Below, one piece after another: positions 5,863 through 35,546 of a stretch of DNA of 40,546 nt (its first letter is position 1; each line of letters opens with the position of its first letter). Below the pieces are notes generated by a model. It was not told the origin of the DNA. It did not search any database and worked only from the letters and a program-made list of their open reading frames with translations. The stretch comes from Gammaproteobacteria bacterium (GTDB lineage: Bacteria > Pseudomonadota > Gammaproteobacteria > SZUA-152): the NCBI GenBank assembly GCA_011371455.1, contig DRQN01000076.1, positions 1 to 40,546 on the forward strand, read 5' to 3'. Both the position numbers and the translations under genes were made by a program.

Positions 5863-6300
5863 ATGGTTGCATACAAGAGGATTCTGGCGACCCTCGATCA
5901 GGGGCATGATGGTGAGCTGGTGTGCCAGCGGGCCGCCGAGCTGGCGGAAAGATATTCCGCCCAACTGCTATTGTTGCACGTGGTGGAGTATGTACCCATC
6001 GATCTCGGCAGCGAGCTGATGCTGCCGCAGCCGATGGAGATCGAGGAGTCTCTGGTGGCGCGGGCAAAGGATTATCTGGCCGACAAGGTGAAAGCGCTGC
6101 ATGGCATCGACGTCGCTTCGCACGTTGAAGTGGGGGTGACAAAGCTGGAGATCATCCGTTATGCGGATGACAACGATGTGGATCTGATCGTCATCGGTCG
6201 TCATAGCCGGCACGGCATCTTCAGATTGCTGGGCTCCACCGCCAATGCAATTTTGCACAGCGCACACTGTGATGTCCTGGCCGTGAACATCGCGGAGTAG
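5863..6300 (+). CDS. Universal stress protein (UspA family)
   Basis: YKRILATLD at the N-terminus; DLIVIGRHSRHG...LLGSTANAILHSAHCDVLAV. Confidence 0.95.
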   Translation: MVAYKRILATLDQGHDGELVCQRAAELAERYSAQLLLLHVVEYVPIDLGSELMLPQPMEIEESLVARAKDYLADKVKALHGIDVASHVEVGVTKLEIIRYADDNDVDLIVIGRHSRHGIFRLLGSTANAILHSAHCDVLAVNIAE

Positions 6301-6668
6301 CATCTGCTCCCGGGGGAGGCCTGCGGGCAATCCTGTGAGCACCTCCAGGGCTGCCCGGCGCAAGGTTGTCGAGTCTTTGGTCTGTCGTATAGAAATCGAC
6401 AATCGATTCTACTTGATTGCTACGATATCAACGGCTTGGTGCCTTTTCTCTTACCGGTGCATGGCCTCGTGCAAGAGGTGTCCGAAAGTGCCTATTTTTG
6501 CTGCGCAGTAGTACGGGGGACGGCCCGGCGCGGCCTGGACATTTCCGCAGGCCGCCCTTCTTCGCAGTAAAAAATGCTTTGAAATAAGGGGTTTGGGCGA
6601 ATCGGGCGGGCCTGTGGCCACTTGCTTTGGTGCCGGTCGATTAGTTGATCTTTTTTATCAAATATACG

Positions 6669-6698
6669 TTGACACTCGCATTCGGATTGTTCTAGCAT
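6669..6698 (+). promoter_or_regulatory. Candidate sigma70 promoter upstream of the act operon
   Basis: TTGACA-N18-TAGCAT in the AT-rich region between usp and actA. Confidence 0.5.
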
Positions 6699-7054
6699 CG
6701 GTAGCCATAGATATTATCGATATCTAGAAATACCAAGCCAATAAAAATAATCAAATACTAATATAGCTGGCGCTTCAATGTCGGTGCATGCCGGCGGGGG
6801 AGCGCGGTCAGACGACAACAATAACCATCCACGTCTGTCCGCTGAGTCTGGCCAAAAAATAATATTGAGTGAGAGGGGGTATGCCGCGTTAGCGGTCATC
6901 CCAAATATCGCGGCATTGCCCGCGAATCCTGAACATTTCCGAGTTGTACCTAATGGACGCTTTGTTGGTGTTTTTCCAGCAAGGTGGTGGCGTTTCTGTT
7001 TTCGGGTTTTTTCACCCGTGGGGCGGAAATAATCAATATGCACAGAGGGTTGAT

Positions 7055-7669
7055 ATGGCTGTGAATAAGCGAATTCCTGCTCGTAATCGCCGCGGACGCG
7101 TGGGGCTGGCCTGGGCGCTGGGCCTTGTTGCCTGTTTTTTACTGGTCGTGCCTGTGGCCATGGCCGCGAAATACGATGTGGTTGCGCCGGGTGGAAGTCA
7201 CGATGGCGAGGACGTAAAGCAGCCCATCGAGTTTCCGCACGACATTCATGTCAAGGATAACGATATCAACTGCATGTACTGCCACAGCTACGCCCGGCGC
7301 AGCAATGTGGCGGGCATCCCTCCAACCAGCAAGTGCATGGGCTGCCACAAGATGGTGGCGACGGACAAGCCGCGCATCAAGCAGCTGACCGAATATTGGG
7401 AAAACAAGGAATCACCGCCGTGGAAGAAGGTGAATGATTTGCCGGACTTCGTGTATTTCACCCATGAAATACATTTAAAGACGTTGTTGTTCGATCGTGA
7501 GATCCCGGTGGAAGACGTCAAAGAGGTCTGTGCCCTCTGTCACGGGGACGTGGAAAACATGACCGTGGCGAAGAAGGTCAAACCGCTGAACATGGGCTGG
7601 TGTGTCGGTTGTCACATCGAGAATAAAGAGCTGGGCGCGCCGGGCGATTGCTGGAAATGCCACAAGTAG
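7055..7669 (+). CDS. actA: Alternative complex III pentaheme cytochrome c ActA
   Basis: Five CxxCH motifs (CMYCH, CMGCH, CALCH, CVGCH, CWKCH), QPIEFPHDIH and LPDFVYFTHEIH. ATG7055 follows GAGGG. Confidence 0.9.
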   Translation: MAVNKRIPARNRRGRVGLAWALGLVACFLLVVPVAMAAKYDVVAPGGSHDGEDVKQPIEFPHDIHVKDNDINCMYCHSYARRSNVAGIPPTSKCMGCHKMVATDKPRIKQLTEYWENKESPPWKKVNDLPDFVYFTHEIHLKTLLFDREIPVEDVKEVCALCHGDVENMTVAKKVKPLNMGWCVGCHIENKELGAPGDCWKCHK

Positions 7670-7699
7670 CGGCCGCGGGTCGATAGAGTGAGTAAGCTT

Positions 7700-9913
7700 A
7701 TGTCTGTAAAAATGAACCGTAGAAGTTTCATGAAAATGATGGGCTGGGGTGGAGCCGGCACCCTGCTGGCGGGTTGCGACATGCCCAGCACGGTAACCCT
7801 GGAGGAGGGGCGGGAAGAAGTCATTTCCTATCTGTCGCCGGAGGAATATGTGATCCCCGGGGTTGGCGTCTGGTATGCCTCGACGTGCACCCAGTGTGCC
7901 GCCGGCTGCGGCATTCATGGCCGCGTGCGTGAAGGGCGCGTGCTGAAGCTGGAGGGCAACCCCGCCTCGCCGGTCAACAGGGGCAAGCTGTGCCTGATGG
8001 GGCAGGCCGGCGTGCAGAATCATTACAACCCCGATCGCGTCACCACGCCGTTGTTGCGCAGTGGTGGCAGCTTGTCGCCGGTGTCCTGGGAAAAGGCCGA
8101 ACAGGTGCTGGCCGAAAAGCTGGGTGGCGTGACGAGTGGCCGTTTTGCCTGGTTTACCGGCAGCATGAGTGGTCACCAGTTATCGTTGGTCTCCAGTCAT
8201 CTCGATGCCATGGGTTCGGACAAGCACTTCGTGCACGAAGTGGTCAACAACAGTGTCGCACAGGCGGTATATGCCGATATGTTTGGTGATGCGTCACCGC
8301 GCCTGCGTATCGACAAGGCAAGAATGGTGCTGTCGTTTGGCGCCGATTTCATGGGAACCAGTGAATCGCCGCTGCTTTATTCCGGCGACTACACCCGCTT
8401 CCGCACCGGCGACACCCGCGGCCTGCTGGTGCAGGTGGAGCCAAAGATGTCGCTGACCGGTGGCAGCGCGGATCTGTGGATGCCCATCAGGCCGGGCACC
8501 GAGGGCGTGCTGGCGTTGGGTATCGCCAACCTTCTGCTCAACAAACTGAAGATGAGCGACGCCGGCATCCCTGCGGATGTGCGCGCCATGATCAATGACT
8601 ACGACGTGACCTCGGTGGCGCGTATTACCGGCGTCGCGGGCCATCGCATCCAGCGCGTTGCCGCCCTGTTGCAGGAACGTTCGCCGAGCCTGGTGTTGGC
8701 GGGCGCGGCTGTCGAGGGACATACTCATGGTTATGCCTCGACTGCCGCGGTGATGATGATCAACCATATCCTTGGCAACGTTGGCAGGACCATCGAGCCT
8801 GGTGCCCGGATGCCCTTCCCGCAGCTGGCGGCGAAGCGTGGCGGCACGTCGGACCTCGTTGCCTTCGCCGAGGCCGCCAGGGGGCAACAGCTGGATGCAG
8901 TGATCTTTCACGCCAGTAACCCTGTCTATACCGCACCTGCCTCGCTGGGGCTCGAAGAGGGCCTGGCCAATATCGCCTTCAAGGTAGCCATAGCCCAATT
9001 CCCGGACGAGACCGCCATGGCGGCCGATCTGGTGCTGCCGGCAGCATCCTATCTGGAGGACTGGGGCACCCAGGCGCCGGCCTTCCTTGGTGGTGGGGCC
9101 GCGCTGCAGATGCAGCAGCCATTGATGGAAAAGCTGCATGCCGAGACACGGGGATTCGGTGACATCGTGCTGACCCTGCTCAAACAGCGTAGGGACGCCG
9201 GTTTCGAGGCGTTCGAGGACTACTATGGCTATTTGCGCAATGCCTTTGCCGCGCTACCGGCTTCCGTGAAGGACGGTACGGCCAGCGATGAGGCCTTCTG
9301 GAACGGCGCCTTGCAGACTGGCGTGGTGATGCTGCCTGTGGATGTCGCGCCCTTGAAATCCACGGTGGTCGCCTTCGATCCCCCCAGGGGTGGCAATGAC
9401 GCCGCCGATGGCCTGACCCTGATTCCCTCGCCGCGCATGGGCCTGTGGGATGGCCGTCACGCCAATCTGCCCTGGCTGCAGGAGGCGCCGGATCAGATCA
9501 GCAAGGTGGTATGGGACAGCTGGGCGGAGATTCACCCGGAAACCGCGCAGAAAAATGGCATCTCCCAGGGCGATCTAATCAGTGTTAGTTCCGCTCATGG
9601 CGAGATCAGGACGCGCGCTGTTCTGCTCAAGAGCATGCATCGCGATGCCGTGGCGGTGCCGCTGGGCCAGGGGCATGAAGCCTATGGCCGCTACGCGAAA
9701 GGCGTTGGCGTCAATCCGCTGAAGATCATCGATCCGGCCCGGGACGAAAAAACCGGAGAACTGGCCATGTACGCCACCCGGGTCAGCATCAAACGCATTG
9801 CCGGGCCGGAACAGTTTGGACTGGTCAAGGCAGGCGGCAGCGACACACAGGCCGGCCGCAGACTGGTAGTGACGGTGCCGGCTGAGCAGCTCAGACGTAC
9901 GGAGGGGGCGTAA
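7700..9913 (+). CDS. actB1: ACIII subunit B1, molybdopterin-oxidoreductase-like Tat lipoprotein
   Basis: Tat motif NRRSFMK, lipobox LLAGC, CTQCAAGC...KLC Fe-S motif, ADLVLPAASYLEDWG and DGRHANLPWLQEAPD. Alternative starts at 7688 and 7712. Confidence 0.88.
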   Translation: MSVKMNRRSFMKMMGWGGAGTLLAGCDMPSTVTLEEGREEVISYLSPEEYVIPGVGVWYASTCTQCAAGCGIHGRVREGRVLKLEGNPASPVNRGKLCLMGQAGVQNHYNPDRVTTPLLRSGGSLSPVSWEKAEQVLAEKLGGVTSGRFAWFTGSMSGHQLSLVSSHLDAMGSDKHFVHEVVNNSVAQAVYADMFGDASPRLRIDKARMVLSFGADFMGTSESPLLYSGDYTRFRTGDTRGLLVQVEPKMSLTGGSADLWMPIRPGTEGVLALGIANLLLNKLKMSDAGIPADVRAMINDYDVTSVARITGVAGHRIQRVAALLQERSPSLVLAGAAVEGHTHGYASTAAVMMINHILGNVGRTIEPGARMPFPQLAAKRGGTSDLVAFAEAARGQQLDAVIFHASNPVYTAPASLGLEEGLANIAFKVAIAQFPDETAMAADLVLPAASYLEDWGTQAPAFLGGGAALQMQQPLMEKLHAETRGFGDIVLTLLKQRRDAGFEAFEDYYGYLRNAFAALPASVKDGTASDEAFWNGALQTGVVMLPVDVAPLKSTVVAFDPPRGGNDAADGLTLIPSPRMGLWDGRHANLPWLQEAPDQISKVVWDSWAEIHPETAQKNGISQGDLISVSSAHGEIRTRAVLLKSMHRDAVAVPLGQGHEAYGRYAKGVGVNPLKIIDPARDEKTGELAMYATRVSIKRIAGPEQFGLVKAGGSDTQAGRRLVVTVPAEQLRRTEGA

Positions 9914-9915
9914 TC

Positions 9916-10767
9916 ATGTCACTTGACAATATCCTTAATCATTGGTCCGACTACCGCAAGGCTGCCGAGGACGGTGGCTTCTACGATCCCGAGGGCAATC
10001 ATCCCTACGAACATCGCTGGACCATGTCCATTGATCTGGATCTCTGTAACGGTTGCAACGCATGTTCCACCGCCTGCTATGCCGAGAACAATCTGGCCTT
10101 TGTCGGCAAGGAGCGTTTCGAGAAGGGCCATGCCATGAACTGGATGCGCATCGAACGTTACTGGGATGACCAGGAAAAGGATTACCCTGAAAGAGGCGCC
10201 AGCTTCCTGCCCATGATGTGCCAGCAGTGCGGTTCGGCCACCTGTGAGCCGGTGTGCCCGGTAGCGGCCACCTACCATACCCCGGACGGTCTCAATGCGC
10301 AGGTCTACAATCGCTGCATCGGTTCCCGTTACTGCTCCAACAACTGCCCGTACCGTGTGCGTTATTTCAATTTTTATTCCTATTACGACGATGCCTGGCC
10401 CGAGCCCATGCAGCAGCAGCTCAATCCGGACATTACGGTGCGTGATAAAGGCGTGATGGAAAAATGCACCTTCTGCGTGCAGCGCATTCGCAGCGCCAAG
10501 GAAAAAGCGAAGATGGAAAACCGTGAAGTGCGTGACGGTGATGTGGTGCCGGCCTGCGCCCAGGCCTGCCCCACCTCGGCCATCGTCTTCGGCGATACCC
10601 TGGATGAGAACAGCGCCATCAGCAAGCTGTGGAAGAAGCATCAGGTCAGGCGCAATGTGACGAAACAGCACAAGGAAAATCCGGAGCTGCGCGGTTACCG
10701 GATTTTCGAGGAACTCAACGTGGACCCCTCCGTGATGTATCTGGAGCGAGTGCGTGAAGAGGTCTAA
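9916..10767 (+). CDS. actB2: ACIII subunit B2, NrfC/PsrB-type iron-sulfur protein
   Basis: CNGCNACSTAC, CQQC...CEPVCP, CIGSRYCSNNCP (missing one Cys, 3Fe-4S type as in ActB) and KCTFC...PACAQACP. Confidence 0.92.
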   Translation: MSLDNILNHWSDYRKAAEDGGFYDPEGNHPYEHRWTMSIDLDLCNGCNACSTACYAENNLAFVGKERFEKGHAMNWMRIERYWDDQEKDYPERGASFLPMMCQQCGSATCEPVCPVAATYHTPDGLNAQVYNRCIGSRYCSNNCPYRVRYFNFYSYYDDAWPEPMQQQLNPDITVRDKGVMEKCTFCVQRIRSAKEKAKMENREVRDGDVVPACAQACPTSAIVFGDTLDENSAISKLWKKHQVRRNVTKQHKENPELRGYRIFEELNVDPSVMYLERVREEV

Positions 10768-10815
10768 CCACTCATCGAGTCGCGAATGTGACGCACAACG
10801 TATGGTGAAACGACA

Positions 10816-12225
10816 ATGATGGTGAATGAAAAAGACATCAACGAACAGATTGCCTGGGCGAAGATCAATACCGACGTCCTGCGCAGTATGGAGAATCCGC
10901 GCAAGAGTTACTGGGTGGCGGTGGCGGTGTGCCTGGCCATGGTCGCCACTGCAGTGCTGGCCGAGTACATCCAGTATACCGTTGGCATGGGGGTCGCCAA
11001 TCTGAATAACCCGCATATGTGGGATATGTACATTGCAACCTTCGTGTTCTGGATTGGCATGAGTCACTCCGGCACGCTGTTGTCGGCGATCCTGCATTTG
11101 CTGCACGCCGATTGGCGCAAACCGATTTATCGCTTCGCCGAGGCGATGACGACCTTCTCGCTGTTGACCGCCGGCCTGTTTCCCATTATCCACCTTGGGC
11201 GCGTATGGAACATGTACTGGGTACTGCCCTATGTCAGTGACCGTGGCATCTGGCCCAATTTCCGTTCGCCGCTGGTGTGGGATGCCTTCGCCATCACTAC
11301 TTATCTTTCTGCCTCCATGCTGTTTCTCTTCATCGGCATGATTCCGGATCTGGCCATTTGCCGCGACAATACCACCGGCTGGCGCAAGAAACTGTACACG
11401 GCGCTGTCGCTGGGCTGGGAAGGCAATGACCGCCAGTGGCGCAATTTCCGCAAGGTCTATCTGTTGATGGCCTGCTTCCTGATTCCGCTGGCGGTATCGG
11501 TGCATTCCATCGTCTCGGCTGACTTTGCCATGTCCATCATGCCGGGCTGGCACATCACCAGCTTCCCGCCCTATTTCGTGGCAGGCGCCTTGTACTCGGG
11601 CTGCGCAGCGATCATCACGCTATTCATCATGCTGCGTTATTTTTTCCGTTTTGAGGAATACATGACCTTGCCGATCATGGAGAAGACCGCCAAGCTGACC
11701 TTTGCCATCGCCATGGTGTGGACCTACCTGAACCTGATCGAATTCGCCTCGGTGTGGTACGGACATGACATGTATAACAAGGAATTGCTGATCGCCAAGG
11801 CCACTGGGCCCTACGCCCCGATCTTCTGGGGTATGCTGTTTTGCGGCTCGGTAGTGCCTTTTGCCCTCGCGTTTCGCAAGTTGCGCCGGCATATGCCGAC
11901 CATGTTCGTGGTCTCCATTTTACTCAACGTGGGCATGTTCTTTGAACGCTGGATGATCGTTGCCCCGACCCTGTCGTTGTCGCACGAGCCGTGGCAGTGG
12001 GACGTGATGTGGGGCAGCATTGTCGAGTGGGCGCTGGTGTTCGGCAGCTTCGGCTGGTTCGGTCTGTTGTTTCTGGTGTTTGTCAAGGTGTTTCCGTCGG
12101 TCTCCATGTACGAAGTCAAGGAAATGGTCTTCCATCGCAACATGACCGCCGGTGAGCGGGATGTGCTGCGCATGACCGACCATGCCAAGCCTGTCAAACA
12201 AACCCCCGGCGTGGAGGGCGCATAA
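10816..12225 (+). CDS. actC: ACIII quinol-oxidising membrane subunit ActC (NrfD/PsrC family)
   Basis: FVFWIGMSHSGTLLSAIL, RFAEAMT, HLGRVW, WPNFRSPLVWD, SVHSIVS and multiple TM helices. Confidence 0.93.
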   Translation: MMVNEKDINEQIAWAKINTDVLRSMENPRKSYWVAVAVCLAMVATAVLAEYIQYTVGMGVANLNNPHMWDMYIATFVFWIGMSHSGTLLSAILHLLHADWRKPIYRFAEAMTTFSLLTAGLFPIIHLGRVWNMYWVLPYVSDRGIWPNFRSPLVWDAFAITTYLSASMLFLFIGMIPDLAICRDNTTGWRKKLYTALSLGWEGNDRQWRNFRKVYLLMACFLIPLAVSVHSIVSADFAMSIMPGWHITSFPPYFVAGALYSGCAAIITLFIMLRYFFRFEEYMTLPIMEKTAKLTFAIAMVWTYLNLIEFASVWYGHDMYNKELLIAKATGPYAPIFWGMLFCGSVVPFALAFRKLRRHMPTMFVVSILLNVGMFFERWMIVAPTLSLSHEPWQWDVMWGSIVEWALVFGSFGWFGLLFLVFVKVFPSVSMYEVKEMVFHRNMTAGERDVLRMTDHAKPVKQTPGVEGA

Positions 12226-12753
12226 ATGAGTAAACGACGCATACTTGCCTTGTTTGGTGATTTCGCCGAGGCCCATGACGCGATTGCCGATATTCGTCGC
12301 AATGAGGTGCCTGGCGTGACGGTGGATGACATCACCATGAAATCGCCCATCGAGCATCCCGAGGTGGAAGAAGTGCTGGGCGATCGCCCGGTACACATCC
12401 AGAAATTCACCCTGTTGGGCGCCGTTTTTGGCCTGGTGTTCGGCTTCCTGTTTCTCGCCAGCGCCCAGGCCACCTTCCTGGTGCAGCCGCAGGGTGGCAA
12501 GGCGGTGATTCCGTTGCCGGCGAACTTCGTGCTGGTGTACGAAATGATCATCTTCTTTGCCGTCTGGATGACCTTTTTGTCATTCCTGTTTCTGTCCGGG
12601 TTGTTCAAGAAGCGCAGCCGCCTCTACAGTGAAAAGGTCAGCCTTGACCAGGTCGGCCTGATGCTGGAAATCGACGAAGACATTGCCGAGCCGCTGCGGG
12701 ATCTGTTCAAGAAGCACAAGGTGCTGGAGATTCGAGAAGAGGTCATGCAATGA
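12226..12753 (+). CDS. actD: ACIII subunit ActD (DUF3341-like)
   Basis: Two TM helices, GGKAVIPLPANFVLVYEMIIF and position between actC and actE. Confidence 0.85.
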   Translation: MSKRRILALFGDFAEAHDAIADIRRNEVPGVTVDDITMKSPIEHPEVEEVLGDRPVHIQKFTLLGAVFGLVFGFLFLASAQATFLVQPQGGKAVIPLPANFVLVYEMIIFFAVWMTFLSFLFLSGLFKKRSRLYSEKVSLDQVGLMLEIDEDIAEPLRDLFKKHKVLEIREEVMQ

Positions 12754-13286
12754 GAAAAACCAGTGTAGTCGTTGCCGCCCTGATGGTGCCGAGTGTCGTC
12801 ATGGCCTGGCCGTGGTCGACGGATATGATGAATCAGCCCAGCATCAAGCCGCAGGAGGGCGTGATGACGCCCTTCCCGAGCCGCTCGGTGCCTGTGACGG
12901 GTGTTCCCACCCAGGCGGCGAATCGTGAAGAGACGCGCGACATGATCAATCCGGTTGCCGCTTCCGCGGCATCTATCCAGCAGGGGCGTAACCTGTACCA
13001 GATCTATTGCTCGGTCTGTCATGGCCGGGTGGGCAAGGCGGATTCGCCGATCAGTTCCAAGGTTGGCGCCATCGATCTGACCGATGCCTATGTGCAGAAT
13101 GACCTTTCCGAAGGTTGGCTGTGGGGGACGATCACCTTTGGCAGTTATGTGATGCCATCCTATGGCGTGGTGACCGAGCAGGGCGGTTCCAACGACCTGT
13201 CGGTCGAAGAGCGCTGGCACGTGGTCAACTATATCAGGCACGCATTGGTGGACGACGCAGCGGCCGCTGCTGTCGCTGCCAAGTAA
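12750..13286 (+). CDS. actE: ACIII monoheme cytochrome c ActE
   Basis: DMMNQPSIKPQE, a single CSVCH, MPSYG and ERWHVVNYIR. Confidence 0.88.
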   Translation: MRKTSVVVAALMVPSVVMAWPWSTDMMNQPSIKPQEGVMTPFPSRSVPVTGVPTQAANREETRDMINPVAASAASIQQGRNLYQIYCSVCHGRVGKADSPISSKVGAIDLTDAYVQNDLSEGWLWGTITFGSYVMPSYGVVTEQGGSNDLSVEERWHVVNYIRHALVDDAAAAAVAAK

Positions 13287-13328
13287 CGCGCGGAACCAAC
13301 AGCCGGATAACGATAGGGGTAACGGTTC

Positions 13329-14363
13329 ATGGAAAATTTCGGAAGCTGGTCTGTATTGACCACCAATTTTTTGGTTGTTCTTTATTTGGCATTGGCGGGC
13401 GTGACTTTTGCCTCCATCCTTCATCTGGCTAACGGTAAGTGGCGCTTCCAGGTGCGCTACTATGCGGTGTCACTGGCGGCGCTGTTCCCGCTGGCCTTTG
13501 TGTTATTGCTGGTGCTGCTGGGTGGTGGAGAACACACTTTCCCCTGGCTGGCCCAGGCCCATGACGATGGTGTCCACCTGGGCGGATGGCTGGATTACCC
13601 GTTCCTGGTGGTGCGCGAGATCCTCGGCTTTGTCGTCGTCGCCGTGTTGTTCGGCCTGTTCATCAAGTATCAGCATCTGACATCCGTTAGTGACGACCCG
13701 GCAGTGCATCGCCGCTTTCGCAATATCGCTCTGCTGATTCCTTTTGCCTATGTACTGTATGGCACCATGGTGGCCTGGGATTTCGAGATGACCCTGTTGC
13801 CCGGCTGGCACAGTGCAAGCTTTGGTGTCTACCAGTTTGTCAGCATGTTCCAGGGCTTTCTCGCCTTCTTCGTCTTGATGCTGATCGTGCTCAAGCGGTC
13901 CGGCAAGCTGACCAGCGACTACAAACCTTTTGTATTCAACTACATGGCTCAGCTGATCCTGGCTTTCACCATCCTGTGGGCGTATTTCTATTTCACCCAG
14001 TATCTGATCATGTGGTACGGCCGCCTGCCGGAGGAGATGGATCGTTTCGACAATATGATGTTCTACGGGCTGGCGCCCATCTGGTGGCTGTTCCTGGTGT
14101 TAAAGGCCTTCATACCTTTCCTCACCCTCGCTACCTGGACGCCGAACCGGCATAATCCGGCGGTGATCGGTTTTGTTGCGGTGTGCATCATTGTCGGTAC
14201 CTGGCTGGAGCGCTACACCTGGATCGCCGGCTCGGTTTCGCCCGAGTATTACCATATTCCCATGAGCTCGATTTTCGATATCGTGGTGACCCTGGTGATC
14301 TTCGCGGTGGGTTGGTTCTCGGTGAAGAAGGCGCTCAACCACTATGGATTGACGCGTGCCTGA
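13329..14363 (+). CDS. actF: ACIII membrane subunit ActF
   Basis: Polytopic NrfD-like protein with WDFEMTLLPGWHSASFG and LWAYFYFTQYLIMWYGRLPEE. Confidence 0.87.
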   Translation: MENFGSWSVLTTNFLVVLYLALAGVTFASILHLANGKWRFQVRYYAVSLAALFPLAFVLLLVLLGGGEHTFPWLAQAHDDGVHLGGWLDYPFLVVREILGFVVVAVLFGLFIKYQHLTSVSDDPAVHRRFRNIALLIPFAYVLYGTMVAWDFEMTLLPGWHSASFGVYQFVSMFQGFLAFFVLMLIVLKRSGKLTSDYKPFVFNYMAQLILAFTILWAYFYFTQYLIMWYGRLPEEMDRFDNMMFYGLAPIWWLFLVLKAFIPFLTLATWTPNRHNPAVIGFVAVCIIVGTWLERYTWIAGSVSPEYYHIPMSSIFDIVVTLVIFAVGWFSVKKALNHYGLTRA

Positions 14364-14382
14364 GATGGCGTAACTGGCAATT

Positions 14383-14428
14383 GCACGCACAAAAAAGCCC
14401 CCTTTTCAGGGGGCTTTTTTGTGCGTGC
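14383..14428. terminator. Bidirectional Rho-independent terminator after the act operon
   Basis: Perfect 21-bp arms: GCACGCACAAAAAAGCCCCCT-tttc-AGGGGGCTTTTTTGTGCGTGC. Confidence 0.92.
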
Positions 14429-14617
14429 GCATTCAGCTTTCGCTCAGGTTTGTGTCAGTAGGATGCAAAATGCGTAGTTCTGCGCCATGATTAGCTTATA
14501 ATAATATTAATGTTTGCTATGCGAAATCCCGAGCATTTTGTTATGCTCCGGTGCCACCCGGTTATTTTTGGGCTAACATGTCGCGCGAATATACCCTGTT
14601 ACCAAGAAGAGGTAGAG

Positions 14618-15214
14618 ATGAGTTCGGATGAAATCGACTACGGTCGGCGTCGCATGCTTGTGGCTGCGACGACGGCCATGGGGGGAGTCGGTGCAGCTTA
14701 TGTTGCTACTCCATTTATTCTTTCCATGCATCCTTCGGCCAAGGCCCAGGCTGCCGGCGCGCCTGTCGAGGTGGATGTCAGCAAGCTCGAGCCCGGCCAG
14801 CTACTGACCGTGGAGTGGCGCGGAAAACCCGTGTGGATTCTGCGCCGCGATGAGGAGATGCTGAGAAACATGAAGAGTCTGGAGCCGCTTTTGCGTGATC
14901 CGCATTCGGACGAACTGACTCAGCAGCCGGCCTATGCGAAGAATGAATACCGCTCCATCAACCCCGAGTACATGGTGATGATCGGTATTTGTACGCATCT
15001 GGGGTGTGCGCCGACTTTCCGTCCCGAAGTGGCCCCTGAAGACCTTGGCCCGGACTGGAAAGGCGGCTTTTTCTGCCCCTGTCACGGTTCGAGTTATGAC
15101 CTTGCCGGCCGCGTCTACGCGGGTATGCCGGCGCCGACGAACCTTGTTGTCCCCCCTTACCACTTCACTCTGAGCACCCGTTTGGTGATCGGTGTCGATC
15201 CGGAGGCCGCGTAA
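14618..15214 (+). CDS. petA: Cytochrome bc1 Rieske iron-sulfur subunit
   Basis: Tat-like GRRRML, CTHLGC and CPCHGS; AGAGG RBS before ATG14618. Confidence 0.98.
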   Translation: MSSDEIDYGRRRMLVAATTAMGGVGAAYVATPFILSMHPSAKAQAAGAPVEVDVSKLEPGQLLTVEWRGKPVWILRRDEEMLRNMKSLEPLLRDPHSDELTQQPAYAKNEYRSINPEYMVMIGICTHLGCAPTFRPEVAPEDLGPDWKGGFFCPCHGSSYDLAGRVYAGMPAPTNLVVPPYHFTLSTRLVIGVDPEAA

Positions 15215-16452
15215 TGTCCAAGCGTTTATCAGACCGCATGTTGTCCCTGCGCGACTGGGTGGATGCCCGCTTCCCCCTGATGCATTTGTGGGAAGATCAT
15301 CTGACCAAGTACTATGCGCCGAAAAACCTCAATTTCTGGTACTACTTTGGCTCTCTGGCCATTCTGGTACTGGTCATTCAGGTCGTTACCGGCATCTTCC
15401 TGACCATGAACTACAAGCCCACCGCGGAGACGGCCTTTGCCTCCGTGGAATACATCATGCGCGATGTGAACTGGGGCTGGCTGATTCGTTACCTGCATTC
15501 CACCGGCGCCTCGTTCTTCTTCATCGTTGTTTACCTGCACATGTTCCGCAGCCTGCTGTATGGCTCTTACCGGGGGCCGCGTGAATTGTTGTGGGTGATC
15601 GGCATGGCCCTGTTCGTGGTGCTCATGGCCGAGGCCTTCATGGGCTATCTGTTGCCCTGGGGGCAGATGTCCTTCTGGGGTGCGCAGGTCATTATTTCCC
15701 TGTTTGGCGCCATTCCCTACATCGGTGAAGACCTGGCGCTGTGGATTCGCGGTGACTACGTGGTCGCCGACGCGACCCTCAACCGCTTTTTCGCCTTCCA
15801 TGTGATTGCCGCGCCGCTGGTGCTGATCGGCCTGGTGGTGCTGCACATCGTTGCCCTTCATTCGGTGGGTTCCAATAATCCCGACGGTATCGAGATCAAG
15901 GAGAAGAAGGGTCCCGACGGGGTGCCGCTGGACGGTATTCCCTTCCACCCTTACTACACCGTCAAGGACATGGTGGGTGTGGCCGGTTTCCTCATCGTCT
16001 TTGCGGCGGTGGTGTTTTACGCCCCGGAAATGGGCGGTTTCTTCCTTGAGAAGGACAATTTCACGCCGGCGGATCCGCTGAAGACCCCCGAGCACATCGC
16101 CCCGGTCTGGTATTTCACGCCTTTCTACGCGATTTTGCGCGCGGTGCCGGACAAGTTCATCGGCGTACTCGCCATGGGCGCGGCCATTTTCGTGTTGTTC
16201 TTGCTGCCCTGGCTGGATCGCAGTCCGGTGAAGTCCATTCGTCAGCGTGGCACGCTTTTCAAGGTGATCCTGGCCATCTTCGTGGTGAGCTTCATCAGTC
16301 TGGCCTATCTGGGCACTGTGCCCGCAACGCCGATCGCGACGCTGTTCTCGCGCATCTTTACCGTGTTGTACTTTGCCTTTTTCCTGCTCATGCCGTTTTA
16401 TTCCCGGTGGGATAAGACCAAGCCGGCTCCAGAGAGGGTGACATTCAAGTGA
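15214..16452 (+). CDS. petB: Cytochrome b
   Basis: YIMRDVNWGWLIRYLHSTGAS, LPWGQMSFWGA and the PVWY Qo motif. Confidence 0.99.
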   Translation: MSKRLSDRMLSLRDWVDARFPLMHLWEDHLTKYYAPKNLNFWYYFGSLAILVLVIQVVTGIFLTMNYKPTAETAFASVEYIMRDVNWGWLIRYLHSTGASFFFIVVYLHMFRSLLYGSYRGPRELLWVIGMALFVVLMAEAFMGYLLPWGQMSFWGAQVIISLFGAIPYIGEDLALWIRGDYVVADATLNRFFAFHVIAAPLVLIGLVVLHIVALHSVGSNNPDGIEIKEKKGPDGVPLDGIPFHPYYTVKDMVGVAGFLIVFAAVVFYAPEMGGFFLEKDNFTPADPLKTPEHIAPVWYFTPFYAILRAVPDKFIGVLAMGAAIFVLFLLPWLDRSPVKSIRQRGTLFKVILAIFVVSFISLAYLGTVPATPIATLFSRIFTVLYFAFFLLMPFYSRWDKTKPAPERVTFK

Positions 16453-17192
16453 GATATCTAATTTTTGTTATTGCATTATTGGGGTTGCCGCAGGCGGGGC
16501 TTGCGGCCGGTGGTAGCAATGTGCCGCTCGACAAGGTGGATATCGACCTCAAGGACCGGGAATCACTGCGCAACGGCGCCAAGCTGTTCGTGGACTATTG
16601 CCTGAACTGCCATGCCGCGGCGCTGATGCGCTACAGCCGTATCGGCCAGGATCTCGGTATGACGGATGAGGAGGTGACCACCGAGCTGCTGACGGCCGGT
16701 GGCAAGATCGGCGATACCATGACCATCGTGATGCAGCCGAAGGAAGCCGCCGAATGGTTCGGTACCGCACCGCCGGATCTGTCCGTGCTGGCGCGCGTGC
16801 GTGGTGCGGATTGGCTCTATACCTATCTGCGCGGCTTTTATCGTGATGATTCACGCCCCTGGGGCGTGAATAACTCGGTATTCAAGGACGTGGCCATGCC
16901 GCATGCGCTGTGGGAATTGCAGGGCCTGCAGGAGGCCAAGTTTGAGACACATGTCGATGCCGATGGTCATGAACGCGAGACCATTACCGGCTTCACGCTG
17001 GTCGAGCCGGGCTCCATGACCCCCGAGGCCTATGATGCCGCCATGCGTGATTTGGTGAATTTCATGGTCTATCTCAGCGAACCCAGCAAGTTGCAGCGCC
17101 TGGAGCTGGGCAAGTGGGTACTGGCGTTCCTGTTCGTGTTCTTCATTCTGGCCTATATGCTGAAGAAGGAATTCTGGAAAGATATTCGCTGA
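16449..17192 (+). CDS. petC: Cytochrome c1
   Basis: Signal peptide, CLNCH, PPDLS, AMPHAL and a C-terminal TM ending KKEFWKDIR. Confidence 0.97.
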   Translation: MRYLIFVIALLGLPQAGLAAGGSNVPLDKVDIDLKDRESLRNGAKLFVDYCLNCHAAALMRYSRIGQDLGMTDEEVTTELLTAGGKIGDTMTIVMQPKEAAEWFGTAPPDLSVLARVRGADWLYTYLRGFYRDDSRPWGVNNSVFKDVAMPHALWELQGLQEAKFETHVDADGHERETITGFTLVEPGSMTPEAYDAAMRDLVNFMVYLSEPSKLQRLELGKWVLAFLFVFFILAYMLKKEFWKDIR

Positions 17193-17433: not shown

Positions 17434-18060
17434 ATGGCAGTTGTGGCCAATAGAAAATCGGTGATGTCACTTTTTACCGGCGCATCGGATGTTCACAGTC
17501 ATCGCGTGCGCATCGTGCTCGCGGAAAAGGGTATCAACTTCGATTCGGTCGATGTCGATTCTGCCAGCCCCCCCGAGGATCTCATGGAGCTGAATCCCTA
17601 CGGCACCGTGCCTACCCTGGTCGACCGCGACCTGGTGTTGTACGACTCGCAGGTGATCATGGAATACCTGGACGAACGTTTCCCGCACCCGCCCTTGATG
17701 CCGGTCGACCCGGTGTCCCGCGCCCAGAGCCGCATGACCCTGCGCCGCATCCAGCGCGACTGGGACAGCCTGCTGGACAAGGTTGTCGGCAGCGGCAAGG
17801 AGCGAACCAAGGCCGTCAAGGAATTGCGGGAGAGCATGACCGTGGTCGCCCCCATCTTCGAGCAAAAACCCTATTTCCTCAGCGATGAGCTGTCGTTGCT
17901 GGACTGCGCGGTGGCGCCGATCCTGTGGCGCCTGCCCGAGTACGGCATCGAGCTGCCGCCGGCCGCCAAGCCGATGCTGGACTATGCTCAGCGCCTGTTC
18001 GAGATGGAATCCTTCCAGGCCAGCCTGAGCGAAAGCGAGCGGGAAATCCGCGAAGGCTGA
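17434..18060 (+). CDS. sspA: Stringent starvation protein A (GST fold)
   Basis: [40 protein letters not shown] and [16 protein letters not shown]. Confidence 0.97.
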
Positions 18061-18511: not shown

Positions 18512-19006
18512 GTGATCGAAGTCGTCCGGGCCGATATCACCTGCCTGGCGGTCGATGCCATCGTCAACGCCGCCAACGAGGCCCTGCTGGGTGGCGGCGG
18601 TGTCGATGGTGCCATCCATCGGGCGGCGGGGCCGGAGTTGCTGGCCGCCTGTCGGTCCCTGGGTGGTTGCCCCACCGGCGAGGCGCGGATAACCCCCGGC
18701 TTTCGTCTGCCGGCCCGCTGGGTGATCCATACCGTCGGCCCCGTGTGGCATGGCGGCACCCGCCATGAGGCCGAGCGGCTCGCCGCCTGTTACCGAAACA
18801 GTTTCGAGCTGGCCCTGCCGCACGGGCTGCGCAGCATCGCCTTCCCCGCCATCAGCACCGGGGTCTATGGCTATCCCAAGCACGAGGCGGCAGCCATCGC
18901 TACGGCTGCGATGCGTGAGTACGCACCACGTTTTGCGCGCATTATCGCCTGTTGTCATAGCGCGGAAGACCTACGGATCTATCGTGAATTGCTGGCCGCC
19001 GATTGA
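18512..19006 (+). CDS. Macrodomain protein (YmdB-like O-acetyl-ADP-ribose deacetylase / ADP-ribosylhydrolase)
   Basis: DIT...[27 protein letters not shown] and [14 protein letters not shown]. Confidence 0.95.
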
Positions 19007-19587
19007 GATGGCGCTTTGCGCGCGGGCAACAGCAGCGCCAACAATCCACCCAGGGCGCCGTAGAGATGTGCATCCACGATCACCGTGCCACCGGCGCCGG
19101 CCTCCGAGCCGGGCAGCGGTCCCGCCAGCTGTTCCCAGCCCAGCTTGAAGGCCAGCGCACCCAGCAGCAGCCAGGCACTGCGATGGCCGGTGCGGATATC
19201 GGCGATGGCACCGGCCACCAGCAGGCCGTGCAGAACGCCGGACAGGCCCACATACCAGCTCAGCTGGGGATTGAAGATCAGTAATGCCAGGCCCGTTATC
19301 AGGGCGTCGGCGAACAGCAGGATCAGCCAGCTGCGCGTCGACAGGGCGGGGCCGACCAGTAGCCAGATCAGCCACAGCCCGGCCAGATTCATCAGCAGGT
19401 GGGAGGGGCCGAGGTGCAGGAGGTGGGCGCTGAGCAGGCGCCACCACTGGCCGTCCTGAATAGCGGTGCGGTCGTAGCGCAGGGCCTCCTGCGCGGCATC
19501 GCCGAACAGGCCCAGGCCAATGATGAGCGCCGACAGGATCAGCGGGATCTGCAATCGATGCAACCAGTGTCGGCAGGGTGATGTCAT
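18979..19587 (-). CDS. Rhombosortase (rhomboid protease, GlyGly-CTERM-processing subfamily)
   Basis: [23 protein letters not shown]...HLLMN, catalytic [10 protein letters not shown] and DAHLYG. Confidence 0.88.
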
Positions 19588-19646
19588 ACTTGTCGTTGGA
19601 TAGGCGGTGGGCCGCGAAACCTGATCGAGTCCGAAGCCTGGACTTT

Positions 19647-19913
19647 AGGGGGCGTTCTCAATGAATAATACCGTACTGCCGGGCCTCTGTTTTTGTCCAG
19701 CAAGGCAGAACGAGCGCGGTGTGGTTGTTCCACATAAGCGAGTGATAACGCCGCTGGGCGAAAACAGAGGCCCGGCCCTCCGGGTTGCGCCTGAAAAAGC
19801 GCCATGCTGCGTTGTTCGTCGTTCATTTACAACAAGCAAACATCTCTCCTCACGCCTTGCCTGGCGCTTTTTCAGGCACAACAGTACGGTCTTGTTCATT
19901 GAGAACGCCCCCT
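19647..19913. mobile_element. MITE-like non-autonomous element (~267 bp) with 32-bp terminal inverted repeats and two internal hairpins
   Basis: AGGGGGCGTTCTCAATGAATAATACCGTACTG (19647-19678) matches its inverse at 19882-19913 at 30/32. Internal 16-bp IRs: GCCGGGCCTCTGTTTT/AAAACAGAGGCCCGGC and GCCTGAAAAAGCGCCA/TGGCGCTTTTTCAGGC. Confidence 0.8.
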
Positions 19914-19965
19914 GGAACATTTGTTATCATTGATCGATCGAATCATGCCGAACTGGAGTCTACAC

Positions 19966-20418
19966 GTGAACCCGAACAGTAAACGCAACCCACAGCCAGC
20001 GCGCCGCCAGCGCGGCTTCACCCTCATCGAGGTGATGGTGGTGGTGGTCATTCTCGGCATCCTCGCCGCCATTGTCGTGCCGCGCGTCATGGATCGCCCG
20101 GATGCCGCGCGCACCACCAAGGCCAAGCAGGATATCCGTGCCATCGAGAGTTCGCTGAATCTCTACAAGCTGGACAACTTCGTCTATCCCACCACCGACC
20201 AGGGCCTGGAGGCGCTGGTCAGCAAGCCCGAGGGTTCACCCGAGCCGCGCAACTGGAAGCCCTACATGGACCGCCTGCCCAAGGATCCCTGGGGCAATGA
20301 CTACCAGTACCTGTCGCCGGGTGTGCAGGGCGATGTGGATATTTTTTCCCTCGGCGCCGACGGCCAGCCGGGCGGCGAGGGCGTGAATGCCGATATCGGC
20401 AACTGGGATCTGCAGTAA
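19966..20418 (+). CDS. gspG: T2SS major pseudopilin GspG
   Basis: RG|FTLIEVMVVVVILGILAAIVVP, YPTTDQGLEALV and LPKDPWG; GGAG RBS before GTG19966. Confidence 0.97.
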   Translation: MNPNSKRNPQPARRQRGFTLIEVMVVVVILGILAAIVVPRVMDRPDAARTTKAKQDIRAIESSLNLYKLDNFVYPTTDQGLEALVSKPEGSPEPRNWKPYMDRLPKDPWGNDYQYLSPGVQGDVDIFSLGADGQPGGEGVNADIGNWDLQ

Positions 20419-20467
20419 GCGGCAGCGCCACGCGCCCGTTTCCCGATCCCGTGCCGGCCGGTTCACC

Positions 20468-21040
20468 GTGCCCACCACCACTCGCCTGACGCCGCGCCCG
20501 CAGCCGTTCACCGGCCCGCCTTCCCGCGGGCCGTTTGTCGCCTGTCGTGGGTTTACCCTGCTGGAACTGCTGGTGGTGATTCTCATCATCGGCATCATCA
20601 TCGGCTTCGCCAGTCTCTCCGTGGGCCAGCACGCCAGCCGTACCCTGCAGGACGAGGCCAGGCGCATTCACAGCCTGCTGCGCCTGGCCGCGGACGAGTC
20701 GGTATTGCAGGGCCGTGAGCTGGCCATGCAGTTCAGCCCCGAGGGTTATCGTTTCATGACCCTCGACGATGCCAACTGGGTGCCCGTGGAGGGGGATCGT
20801 CTGCTCCGCGAGCGGGAATTCCCCGCTGAGCTGAGCCTGGATCTGAGCCTGGAAGGCGTGGACGTGGATCTGCTCGACACGGAAAATCCGCCGCGTATCT
20901 TTATTCTCTCCAGCGCCGAAATGACCCCCTTCGAACTCATTCTCGGCAACGATGAGGGCGAGACCTATACCTTGCAGGGCGACTTTACCGGCAAGCTGAC
21001 GCTGGCGCGAACCGGGGAGGCCGACGATGACGACTGGTAA
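20468..21040 (+). CDS. gspH: T2SS minor pseudopilin GspH
   Basis: RG|FTLLELLVVILIIGII and IFILSSAEMTPFEL. Start is uncertain (GTG20468 chosen). Confidence 0.9.
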   Translation: MPTTTRLTPRPQPFTGPPSRGPFVACRGFTLLELLVVILIIGIIIGFASLSVGQHASRTLQDEARRIHSLLRLAADESVLQGRELAMQFSPEGYRFMTLDDANWVPVEGDRLLREREFPAELSLDLSLEGVDVDLLDTENPPRIFILSSAEMTPFELILGNDEGETYTLQGDFTGKLTLARTGEADDDDW

Positions 21041-21401
21041 CCGCCAGCGCGGCTTCACCCTGCTGGAGGTCATCGTCGCCCTGGCAGTGATCGCCTTCGC
21101 CCTGTCGGCGGCGGTCAGCGCCGTGTCCGGCAACACGCGCAACGCCGCCGGCCTGCAGCAGCGCACCTACGCCCACTGGGTGGCCATGAACCAGATGGCC
21201 GAGCTGCGCGCCAGCCGCCAGTGGCCGAGCACGCGCACCACCCGCGGCAGCAGCCTGATGGCGCGCCACGAGTGGTACTGGTCGATGCAGGTCTCCACCA
21301 CTCCGGACAAGAACGTGCGGCGGGTGGATATCACCGTGCGCGTCGAGGAAGACGACGAGTCGCCGCTGGTGACCCTGACCGGCTTCGTGGGGCGGCAATG
21401 A
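21027..21401 (+). CDS. gspI: T2SS minor pseudopilin GspI
   Basis: RG|FTLLEVIVALAVIA, AHWVAMNQMAEL and gene order. Confidence 0.94.
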   Translation: MTTGNRQRGFTLLEVIVALAVIAFALSAAVSAVSGNTRNAAGLQQRTYAHWVAMNQMAELRASRQWPSTRTTRGSSLMARHEWYWSMQVSTTPDKNVRRVDITVRVEEDDESPLVTLTGFVGRQ

Positions 21402-22012
21402 ACGGACACGGGCCACAGCGCGGATTCACCCTGCTGGAGCTGCTGGTGGCGCTGTCCATCTTCGCCCTGCTGGCGGCCATGGCCTACGGTGGGCTGAACA
21501 CGGTGATGCGTTCGCAGCAGGCCACCACCCAGCAGGCCGAGCGCCTGGCGCAGTTACAGAAGACCTTTTTCTGGCTGCAGCGCGACATCACCCAGGCCGT
21601 CGACCGCCCCGTGCGGGGTGAGTTCGGTGATCCACAGCCGGCCATGGTGGGGCTGACCCTGGGCGAGCGCCGCCTCGAACTGACCCGCAACGGCTGGCGC
21701 AACCCCGTCGGCCGCCAGCGCAGCAACCTGCAGCGCGTGGCCTGGGGGTTGCGTGACGACAAGCTGGTGCGCCTGTACTGGAACGTGCTGGACCGCGCCC
21801 AGGACAGCAAGCCGCTGGAAACCGAGATGCTGGACGATGTAGAGAAATTGGAATTGCGCTTTCTCGACGACAAGCAGAAGTGGCACGACGTCTGGCCCGC
21901 CCTCAATCGCGGCGTGGCGGTCAGTATCAGCCTGCCGCTGGCGGTGGAAGTGACCGTGGAGACCGGCCGTGAGGGCCGCATCCGCCGTGTCTTCGAGGTG
22001 GCTGGCGGATGA
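21398..22012 (+). CDS. gspJ: T2SS minor pseudopilin GspJ
   Basis: RG|FTLLELLVALSIFA, TRNGWRNP...RSNLQRV and LPLAVEV; ATGA overlap with gspI. Confidence 0.95.
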   Translation: MNGHGPQRGFTLLELLVALSIFALLAAMAYGGLNTVMRSQQATTQQAERLAQLQKTFFWLQRDITQAVDRPVRGEFGDPQPAMVGLTLGERRLELTRNGWRNPVGRQRSNLQRVAWGLRDDKLVRLYWNVLDRAQDSKPLETEMLDDVEKLELRFLDDKQKWHDVWPALNRGVAVSISLPLAVEVTVETGREGRIRRVFEVAGG

Positions 22013-24248: not shown

Positions 24249-24739
24249 AGGCCTGGTTCGAAAGCCTCGAGCCGCGCGAGCGGCGCATGCTGATCGTCGG
24301 TGCGGCGCTGCTCGGCGTGATGCTGTTTTATGTGCTGGTGTGGGAGCCGCTGGAACACGGCGTCGACACCCTGCGCAAGAGCAACGCCGAACAACAGGCC
24401 CAGTTGCAGTGGATGCAGCGGGCCGTGGCCGAGGCCAAGCAACTGCGCGGCGCCAGCGGCCGACCGGCGCAGCTGGCCAAGGGTCAGTCACTGCTGGCGG
24501 CCATCGACCGCGCCGCGCGCAGCAATCAGCTCGGCGATGCCCTCAAACGGGTACAGCCCGATGGCAGCGGGCGTGCCCGGGTGTGGCTGGAAAATGCCAG
24601 CTTTGACCGCCTGGTGCGCTGGATCGACGGCCTGCAACGCCAGCAGGGCGTGCGCGTGGTGAGCAGCGTGTTCGAGGCGCGGGAAGAAAAGGGCCGCGTC
24701 GACGCGCGGCTGGTGTTCGAGAGTGGTGGCGGGGCATGA
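24245..24739 (+). CDS. gspM: T2SS protein GspM
   Basis: WFESLEPRERRML, a TM helix and gene order. Confidence 0.92.
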   Translation: MKAWFESLEPRERRMLIVGAALLGVMLFYVLVWEPLEHGVDTLRKSNAEQQAQLQWMQRAVAEAKQLRGASGRPAQLAKGQSLLAAIDRAARSNQLGDALKRVQPDGSGRARVWLENASFDRLVRWIDGLQRQQGVRVVSSVFEAREEKGRVDARLVFESGGGA

Positions 24740-33559: not shown

Positions 33560-33561
33560 TC

Positions 33562-35544: not shown

Positions 35545-35546
35545 TC

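Follow-up and report, generated by a model that had tools for sequence, protein, structure and literature searches.

Tandem alternative complex III and cytochrome bc1 operons in a putatively sulfur-oxidising gammaproteobacterial lineage: gene order, probable origin and possible roles

The act-pet locus

The window analysed here is a stretch of 40,546 nucleotides from a gammaproteobacterium of the order SZUA-152 (GenBank assembly GCA_011371455.1, contig DRQN01000076.1, positions 1 to 40,546 of the forward strand). It encodes two quinone:cytochrome c oxidoreductases side by side, an alternative complex III (ACIII, encoded by the act genes) and a cytochrome bc1 complex (petABC). The plus-strand order is actA-actB1-actB2-actC-actD-actE-actF, a terminator, petABC and then sspAB (Table 1), and all ten act and pet open reading frames (ORFs) are open. 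The host genome (74% complete, 240 contigs) holds a single act set and a single petBC, plus an orphan second Rieske gene. The initial annotation had described an act operon, a strong terminator, petABC 254 bp after actF and a lack of attached terminal oxidase genes, and all of this was confirmed: no oxidase gene flanks the act-pet cluster, and the cbb3 oxidase gene ccoN sits on a different contig. As discussed below, the locus is explained mostly by history, whereas the functional interpretation, a hypothesis already in the literature, is neither proved nor required by the locus.

The 254 bp between the actF stop codon and the petA ATG contain a hairpin whose 22-bp stem is perfect and is bordered by runs of A and T (fold energy -41.3 kcal/mol, z -10.2; none of 200 shuffled sequences folded as well). 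The act-pet spacer of tandem loci varies between about 250 and 990 bp, with a wider gap of approximately 2.5 kb, by coordinates, in genome G015. Because a terminator separates the two gene sets and the gap between them is variable, act and pet appear to be transcribed separately; “operon in tandem” is the right wording, and a single shared act-pet operon is the wrong one.

Upstream of act there is a TTGAT-N7-ATCAA inverted repeat (6645-6661), a promoter-like site TTGACA-18-TAGCAT (6669-6698) and, just after its -10-like element, a 7-5-7 palindrome (6708-6726). A promoter scan by itself was at chance level (6 found, 6.1 expected), but the two hexamers are kept in all six aligned congeners, two of which lack act. 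The inverted repeat preceding the -35-like element is mostly retained in these congeners. By contrast, the left arm of the palindrome is deleted in both of the aligned genomes that lack act, suggesting that the palindrome is a candidate act-specific operator. No box matching an FNR consensus upstream of act or pet was conserved across 30 loci.

Table 1. Coordinates of the act-pet locus and its flanking markers in the window
Feature	Position	Strand	Evidence or remark
usp gene, upstream neighbour in this lineage, where others have nif3/degS	5863..6300	+	Usp-family matches; 5' of act in 17 loci
Likely act promoter region (putative function)	6645..6726	+	Repeat, hexamers and palindrome
actA, pentaheme cytochrome c	7055..7669	+	5 CxxCH; matches ACIII chain A (8K9E, 6F0K, 6LOD) at E ~1e-27
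actB1, molybdopterin-oxidoreductase-fold subunit	7700..9913	+	Twin-arginine signal, lipobox-like LAGC, CX2CX3CX27C iron-sulfur motif; Asn at ArrA Mo-ligand Cys position
actB2, iron-sulfur subunit	9916..10767	+	Matches 6F0K chain B at E 7e-74; aligned cluster motifs, cysteine pattern of ActB B2 domain
actC, NrfD-like quinone-binding membrane subunit	10816..12225	+	E 3e-102 to 6F0K chain C
actD	12226..12753	+	PF11821 ActD, 89.8 bits (cut-off 25.7)
actE, monoheme cytochrome c	12750..13286	+	1 CxxCH; top PDB match 6F0K chain E, E 1.6e-7
actF, ActC paralogue, 344 aa	13329..14363	+	ActC match E 1.8e-11; position after actE
Bidirectional intrinsic terminator-like hairpin, 22-bp stem	14382..14429	.	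Called on both strands
petA, Rieske protein	14618..15214	+	TIGR01416, 238 bits (cut-off 97.4); CTHLGC and CPCHGS motifs
petB, cytochrome b, native gammaproteobacterial type	15214..16452	+	PF00033 and PF00032 over cut-off; tree; PVWY Qo motif
petC, cytochrome c1	16449..17192	+	PF02167 over cut-off; 1 CxxCH
sspA, downstream marker of native pet slot	17434..18060	+	NF007016, 296.7 bits, below cut-off 314

Identity and integrity of the two complexes

The six ACIII subunits, ActA to ActF, are encoded in one cluster, and ActA, B1, B2, C and E each match their counterpart chain in solved ACIII structures. The pentaheme ActA and monoheme ActE that mark ACIII are both present. The cysteine pattern of ActB2, aligned to 6F0K chain B, fits one predicted 3Fe-4S and three predicted 4Fe-4S clusters. 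In ActC, His126, Asp156 and Asp236 of the quinol site correspond to His139, Asp169 and Asp253 of Rhodothermus marinus, and the triad is invariant in all 105 aligned rows. Of the 23 quinol-site and proton-path residues checked, from the set named for R. marinus (PMC5928083; Ser180 lies outside the checked set), 21 are identical, including Glu377 and Arg378; the positions of Tyr323 and Glu338 are Asn. ActF gave no match in Pfam or NCBIfam searches.

ActB departs from the canonical form, a single polypeptide with a cofactor-free B1 part, and fits the split variant: it is divided into two ORFs and keeps the cysteines of the FS0 iron-sulfur cluster. All 90 close rows have these four cysteines unchanged, and the six most distantly related rows lack them. 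Asn183 aligns with the molybdenum-ligand cysteine of the arsenate reductase subunit ArrA (Asn in 76 of the 90 rows), and in the same alignment an acidic residue (Glu or Asp) stands three residues before the ligand position in every close row. In molybdoenzyme catalytic subunits of the bis-pyranopterin type the metal ligand is Cys, Sec, Ser or Asp. A predicted ActB1 model (pLDDT 81.8, pTM 0.84) has the fold of ArrA, ActB and PsrA; it confirms the fold only and cannot discriminate between bound molybdenum and FS0. The split actB, the CX2CX3CX27C motif in B1 and the gene order all equal those of the actAB1B2CDEF variant of Kato et al. 2015. The cluster does not qualify as a Qrc complex, since the matches to QrcA, QrcB and QrcC are below cut-off (81.7/180, 293.5/440 and 227.3/400, respectively) and ActD, E and F are present.

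The downstream genes encode a cytochrome bc1 complex: those for the Rieske protein, cytochrome b and cytochrome c1 follow one another as petABC, and all three products score over cut-off. The PVWY Qo motif carried by PetB is typical of beta- and gammaproteobacteria (PMC4122944). Compared with three congeneric loci, the seven act genes have ratios of nonsynonymous to synonymous substitution rates of 0.02-0.10, and the three pet genes of 0.02-0.08. Both complexes thus look intact, functional and under purifying selection. GC content of the region (54-63%) is slightly under the 63.5% of the genome, and GC at third codon positions (GC3) is alike in act and pet.

Conservation and reciprocal deletions

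Among 32 genomes of the order, ActC was found in 27, PetB in 28 and both in 25. The act-pet tandem lies on one contig in 21 of these 25, and the remaining 4 have contig ends on both sides of the junction, so the adjacency is not unique to this assembly. In 18 tandem loci, Act and Pet distances are correlated (rho 0.89; 0 of 999 permutations), which shows co-inheritance rather than co-function. Outside the order the arrangement is rare. Forty-two of 400 genomes of the class pass the ActD cut-off; among the 38 non-order ones, 30 also have petB and only 2 have the tandem.

Three congeners of the host, G001, G002 and G005 (90-98% complete), have no detectable ActC. In G001 and G002 the usp gene is followed directly by petABC-sspA. 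The spacer of all three genomes is a fusion of the region upstream of act to the region upstream of petA, and in two of them the old actA start codon has been left behind. Since the three cluster together in the PetB tree, the loss of act was probably one event. They retain RuBisCO (ribulose-1,5-bisphosphate carboxylase/oxygenase) and an 11-heme cytochrome described below, and G002 retains soxB, dsrA and nuoD. Terminator fold energy in sliding windows is -35 to -42 kcal/mol in four act-bearing congeners and -19 to -22 kcal/mol in the three act-deleted ones; a decayed terminator would be expected if pet in the latter is now read from the old act promoter.

The converse deletion is found in G019, where actF lies 375 bp from sspA and the spacer consists of the post-actF region joined precisely to the post-petC region of sibling loci. 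Cytochrome b was not found in this genome, which is 81% complete. Eight genomes of the class, with completeness of 90-100%, likewise carry this ACIII but no cytochrome b. The act-pet pairing is therefore not obligatory, and either partner can be lost. G006, G016 and G023 were considered as further pet losses and rejected; in these genomes sspA is absent or truncated at the end of a contig, and they were treated as assembly gaps.

Origin of the tandem

The native chromosomal slot of pet could be recognised from its neighbours. In 10 of 10 other class genomes with native-type petB that were fetched, sspA follows petC, and in 9 of the 10 a degS-like gene and/or nif3 lies upstream (by ORF inspection, confirmed with hidden Markov models for one locus). 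The same genes border act elsewhere. Among 79 close-type ACIII loci with enough sequence to judge, 42 have nif3/degS less than 1 kb upstream of actA; of the rest, 17 have usp upstream, 16 have something else, and in 4 act is inverted between sspA and degS. A further 15 loci had too little sequence, and 11 rows that were distant or zetaproteobacterial were not counted. One locus, L179, has the order degS-nif3-act-sspA.

An ActC tree of 105 rows places all 19 tandem loci and all 11 loci with actF next to sspA in one clade of 44 rows, with an SH-aLRT (Shimodaira-Hasegawa-like approximate likelihood ratio test) support of 99. A six-subunit FastTree of 83 rows recovers this clade. Taken together, gene order and the gene trees make it very probable that act was inserted once, long ago, between nif3 and petA of a native degS-nif3-petABC-sspA slot, and that native pet was then repeatedly lost, the lineage studied here having kept both. 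The adjacency of act and pet would thus result from insertion of act at the native pet slot.

Loss of native pet did not usually leave a genome without cytochrome b. In 49 genomes with such ACIII loci, petB is of native type in 6, of a divergent type only (~47-60% identity) in 32, and was not found in 11. Most divergent copies fall in a separate PEWY clade of 29 rows, which fits the unusual cytochrome c1 noted for Tenderiales (10.1101/2022.05.06.490989). Outside the order, 9 of 10 genomes with actF next to sspA carry a divergent petB elsewhere. Given these copies, and petB in 30 of the 38 other ACIII-bearing class genomes, we propose that demand for both complexes persists.

Several loci depart from the common layout. 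In L079, L188, L193 and L197 act is inverted in the slot between sspA and degS, and three genomes of one such family (98-100% complete) lack a cytochrome b. In L147 (G023:C10) act lies outside the slot, between ORFs that on inspection read as mfd-like and murJ-like. On the opposite strand between actF and petA of G010, a 135-aa ORF (L155:12854-13258) reads on inspection as a putative hemerythrin-like protein. G017 has three complexes III (L152, L153, L154), namely ACIII, native bc1 and a PEWY-type bc1. The zetaproteobacterial loci L106, L107, L109 and L110 have a divergent, PVWY-type petABC 2.5-3.4 kb after actF, with small iron-sulfur and membrane genes between, and are a separate ACIII-bc1 neighbourhood.

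Metabolism of the host lineage

The nearest titled relatives of the host are marine, largely vent, gammaproteobacterial metagenome-assembled genomes (MAGs). Such vent MAGs have been described as sulfur oxidisers with sox, rdsr and sqr genes, the Calvin-Benson-Bassham (CBB) cycle and cbb3 oxidase (PMC9174799). RuBisCO is present in 31 of the 32 order genomes, with two copies in that of the window. In the five genomes searched for individual markers, soxB is over cut-off in all, and dsrA (over cut-off) and nuoD are each present in four, neither being found in the 74%-complete genome of the window, where soxA, soxY and dsrJ/P-like genes are present. By gene content the host is a CBB-autotrophic, sulfur-oxidising chemolithoautotroph, in agreement with the chemolithoautotrophy suggested in the initial annotation. 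Of the lithotrophy genes named there, sox, dsr and cbb genes were found; an N-terminal motif of the iron oxidase Cyc2 gave 0 matches in the genome of the window, a weak test given its completeness, and mto/pio genes were not searched by family.

All five searched genomes have ubiA over cut-off, and none has a detectable menB or mqnC. As ubiA is present and no menaquinone pathway was found, this ACIII probably works with ubiquinone. An rquA-like methyltransferase gene (e.g., L229:3161-3766) occurs in 17 of the 32 order genomes, in 2 over the curated cut-off and in the rest just under it, hinting at rhodoquinone in these gammaproteobacteria. Rhodoquinone as the substrate of ACIII was rejected, as the rquA-like gene is present in all three act-deleted genomes and was not found in two tandem genomes that are 99-100% complete. 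The genome of the window also encodes an 862-aa cytochrome with 11 CxxCH motifs (G000:C210:197-2782, L209), near-full-length relatives of which occur in most order genomes, often in two or three copies. It was rejected as an obligatory partner of ACIII, because full-length matches are also found in act-deleted genomes.

Possible roles of the two complexes

In a sulfur oxidiser, donors that enter at the quinone level need a forward-running complex III, whereas Sox donors enter at cytochrome c and need uphill electron flow to NAD+. Ordinary sulfur oxidisers perform both with bc1, and the act-deleted congeners must likewise run both directions through it. Need for a forward complex III is underlined by the distribution of bd oxidase, which was found in 8 of the 32 order genomes and not in the other 24, including the whole genus of the host.

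The reading that we prefer, and for which we consider the chances evenly balanced, is a biased and non-obligatory split in a tandem that stems from a single old insertion, with ACIII mostly reducing ubiquinone and bc1 mostly oxidising ubiquinol. Both complexes would share one ubiquinone pool. Ubiquinol from sulfur and hydrogen oxidation would pass its electrons mostly forward through bc1 to cytochrome c and the cbb3 oxidase, while ACIII would work chiefly in the quinone-reducing direction, moving electrons from cytochromes of the periplasm to ubiquinone and so feeding complex I and CO2 fixation. Since the split would be only a bias, each complex would cover for the other, and for that reason either could be lost. 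Transcript data from other lithotrophs are in line with this direction: in Sideroxydans ES-1, ACIII rises sharply together with complex I and RuBisCO on Fe(II) (PMC8788666), and in Tenderia the transcripts of ACIII group with those of complex I, and those of bc1 with cbb3 (PMC5371394).

Several observations weigh against this reading. The direction is taken from the transcriptomes of two other organisms, and the bc1 of Tenderiales belongs to the divergent clade. Zetaproteobacteria that have both complexes express bc1 1.5-18.6 times more than ACIII, and bc1 is favoured there for reverse flow (PMC7029218). All five of the ACIII-only genomes that were checked have a heme-copper oxidase and four of them have no bd oxidase, which suggests that ACIII can run forward, unless all donors enter at the cytochrome level. 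Loss of ACIII tracks neither loss of the 11-heme cytochrome nor loss of the rquA-like gene, so that no dedicated donor or quinone was found. As to history, the full order degS-nif3-act-pet-sspA is on no single contig and was pieced together from overlapping layouts, and bc1 might be elsewhere in the incomplete genome of G019.

The main rival holds that both complexes are forward quinol:cytochrome c oxidoreductases for different oxygen or redox conditions, and that the tandem is a long-lived replacement intermediate with losses either way. We see this as a real, if minority, possibility. Solved ACIIIs are quinol oxidases and their quinol-site residues are all kept here; the clean reciprocal deletions would follow as well, as would the ACIII-only genomes that have a heme-copper oxidase but lack bd oxidase, and in Gallionella ES-2, which lacks bc1, ACIII has been proposed as the substitute (PMC3770913). 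Pure redundancy would not, however, predict that most genomes that lost native pet hold a second, PEWY-type bc1, and the ES-1 and Tenderia transcripts tie ACIII to complex I and CO2 fixation. These transcripts also point away from the opposite split, in which bc1 would run backwards, producing the quinol needed for NADH, and ACIII would pass electrons forward to the cbb3 oxidase. Reverse operation of bc1 is established for Acidithiobacillus (cited in PMC4643136) and favoured for Zetaproteobacteria, and the congeners without act must use bc1 for any reverse flow; yet the bc1 of the window is of the ordinary native PVWY type and no oxidase gene is linked to act, making this split improbable. A strict division of roles, with both complexes essential and their adjacency under selection, seems slightly less probable again. 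The tandem in most order genomes with both complexes, purifying selection on both and an autotrophic host speak for it, but three act-less congeners keep RuBisCO and the 11-heme cytochrome (one of them also soxB, dsrA and nuoD), one relative lost pet, G023 moved act elsewhere, and few ACIII-bearing genomes outside the order have the tandem. The absence of act from three congeners and of pet from one relative means that a strict forward/reverse split is not required. Of the divided roles put forward in the initial annotation, then, the intact complexes, the conserved adjacency and the lithoautotrophic host are supported, whereas strict division and adjacency as a functional pairing are not supported, given the terminator, the variable gap, the insertion and the reciprocal losses.

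Two further alternatives concern the nature of the locus itself. ActB1 might bind molybdenum bis-pyranopterin guanine dinucleotide and turn over its own periplasmic substrate, so that the act cluster would be a molybdoenzyme and not a complex III. B1 is a separate protein of the twin-arginine pathway with four invariant FS0 cysteines, ArrA is its best sequence and fold match, the acid preceding the ligand position is invariant, and the Mariprofundus homologue has been proposed to act in this way (PMC3179512). However, Asn183 aligns with the ArrA ligand cysteine, ActB of solved ACIIIs has that acid too, B1 of R. marinus has no prosthetic group (PMC5928083) and all other ACIII subunits are present; we regard this alternative as very improbable. 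That the adjacency is an artefact of assembly or binning, or a recent transfer, is scarcely credible. Fragmentation of the assembly and the GC content of the region might suggest it, but it is refuted by the recurrence of this layout in 21 genomes of the order and 2 outside it, and Act and Pet co-diverge with similar GC3.

A bolder reading would regard the tandem as the state, still preserved here, from which an in-place takeover of the bc1 locus by ACIII began across the class, with ACIII as a ubiquinone-dependent reductase, the strictly conserved fifth iron-sulfur cluster (in ActB1) as a live second electron port, and the two complexes in series. Electrons would pass from periplasmic cytochromes through ACIII to ubiquinone, and from ubiquinol through bc1 to cbb3. 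We think this rather unlikely; if true, vent sulfur oxidisers would gain an additional coupling step, one not known from any characterised ACIII.

Relation to known systems

Published work already covers genomes with both ACIII and bc1, the divided ActB and its FS0 motif, and the forward/reverse hypothesis. The last is in print for Tenderiales (10.1101/2022.05.06.490989) and for iron oxidisers (PMC8788666, PMC4643136). None of the full texts searched describes an act-petABC-sspAB tandem, an ACIII occupying the pet slot or the reciprocal deletions, although subscription papers (e.g., the Refojo surveys of ACIII clusters) and supplements could hold such a description.

The closest described clusters are the seven-gene, ACIII-like ones of the neutrophilic iron oxidisers Ferriphaselus, Sideroxydans, Gallionella and Mariprofundus (Kato et al. 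2015, PMC4643136), which share gene order, split actB and the B1 motif with the window and usually have a bc1 in the genome. ActC is 66-68% identical to that of zetaproteobacterial loci. In contrast to the iron oxidisers, act here abuts the native petABC-sspAB, and the host is a putative sulfur oxidiser in which the weak search found no Cyc2-like motif; in the four zetaproteobacterial loci a different bc1 follows at a distance, with other genes between. Tenderiales also combine both complexes with CBB, cbb3 and multiheme cytochromes (Eddie et al., 10.1101/2022.05.06.490989, PMC5371394). ActC is 74-78% identical to loci titled Tenderia, in the same wider ACIII clade, but these have no pet beside act and the checked genomes carry a divergent PEWY-type bc1 elsewhere, whereas the window keeps the native PVWY type.

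The solved ACIIIs of R. marinus (6F0K), Flavobacterium johnsoniae (6BTM), Roseiflexus castenholzii (6LOD) and Chloroflexus aurantiacus (8K9E) share with the window subunits A to F, the pentaheme ActA, the monoheme ActE, the B2 motifs, the quinol site and most proton-path residues. They differ from it in that here ActB is split with FS0 cysteines, the cluster has no actG and no oxidase is linked. The four solved enzymes use menaquinol, whereas no menaquinone genes were found in the five genomes searched here. Qrc of Desulfovibrio, a cytochrome c3:menaquinone oxidoreductase (PMC8076601), resembles the window in its split architecture and in the quinone-reducing direction suggested here, and QrcA, QrcB and QrcC are the top NCBIfam matches, below cut-off, of ActA, B1 and B2; it differs in that ActC here is of ACIII type and ActD, E and F are present. 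Acidithiobacillus ferrooxidans is another lithotroph with two complexes III, for which opposite directions were proposed (cited in PMC4643136, PMC5566968), but both are bc1, whereas the two enzymes here are unrelated and either is deletable.

Transcript evidence on the direction of lithotroph ACIII with split ActB is conflicting, and the present lineage offers a natural knock-out series on a shared background: both complexes on one contig (21 genomes), bc1 only (3 congeners) and, at the locus, ACIII only (1 genome). It also illustrates how, at one and the same chromosomal position, a respiratory complex can displace an unrelated one; the deletion scars are still readable. As these hosts look like sulfur oxidisers, act genes are unsafe as a marker of iron oxidation.

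Other features of the window and genome

The act-pet cluster is preceded by groEL and the usp gene, and followed by sspA, a gene in the position of sspB, a rhombosortase gene and type II secretion genes; the rhombosortase gene is divergent from the latter (18979-25527). Near groEL, positions 555-2816 encode a 750-aa protein with a squalene-cyclase-like region, an immunoglobulin domain and TSP3 repeats, which is also found near groEL in G001. A pgaABC(D) operon for a biofilm polysaccharide occupies positions 31109-37336. The orphan Rieske gene of the same genome (G000:C146:1688-2416, L231) is 68% identical to PetA and over the TIGR01416 cut-off, has no petB or petC beside it, lies 3' of a copper P-type ATPase gene and adjoins a gene for a small cytochrome c.

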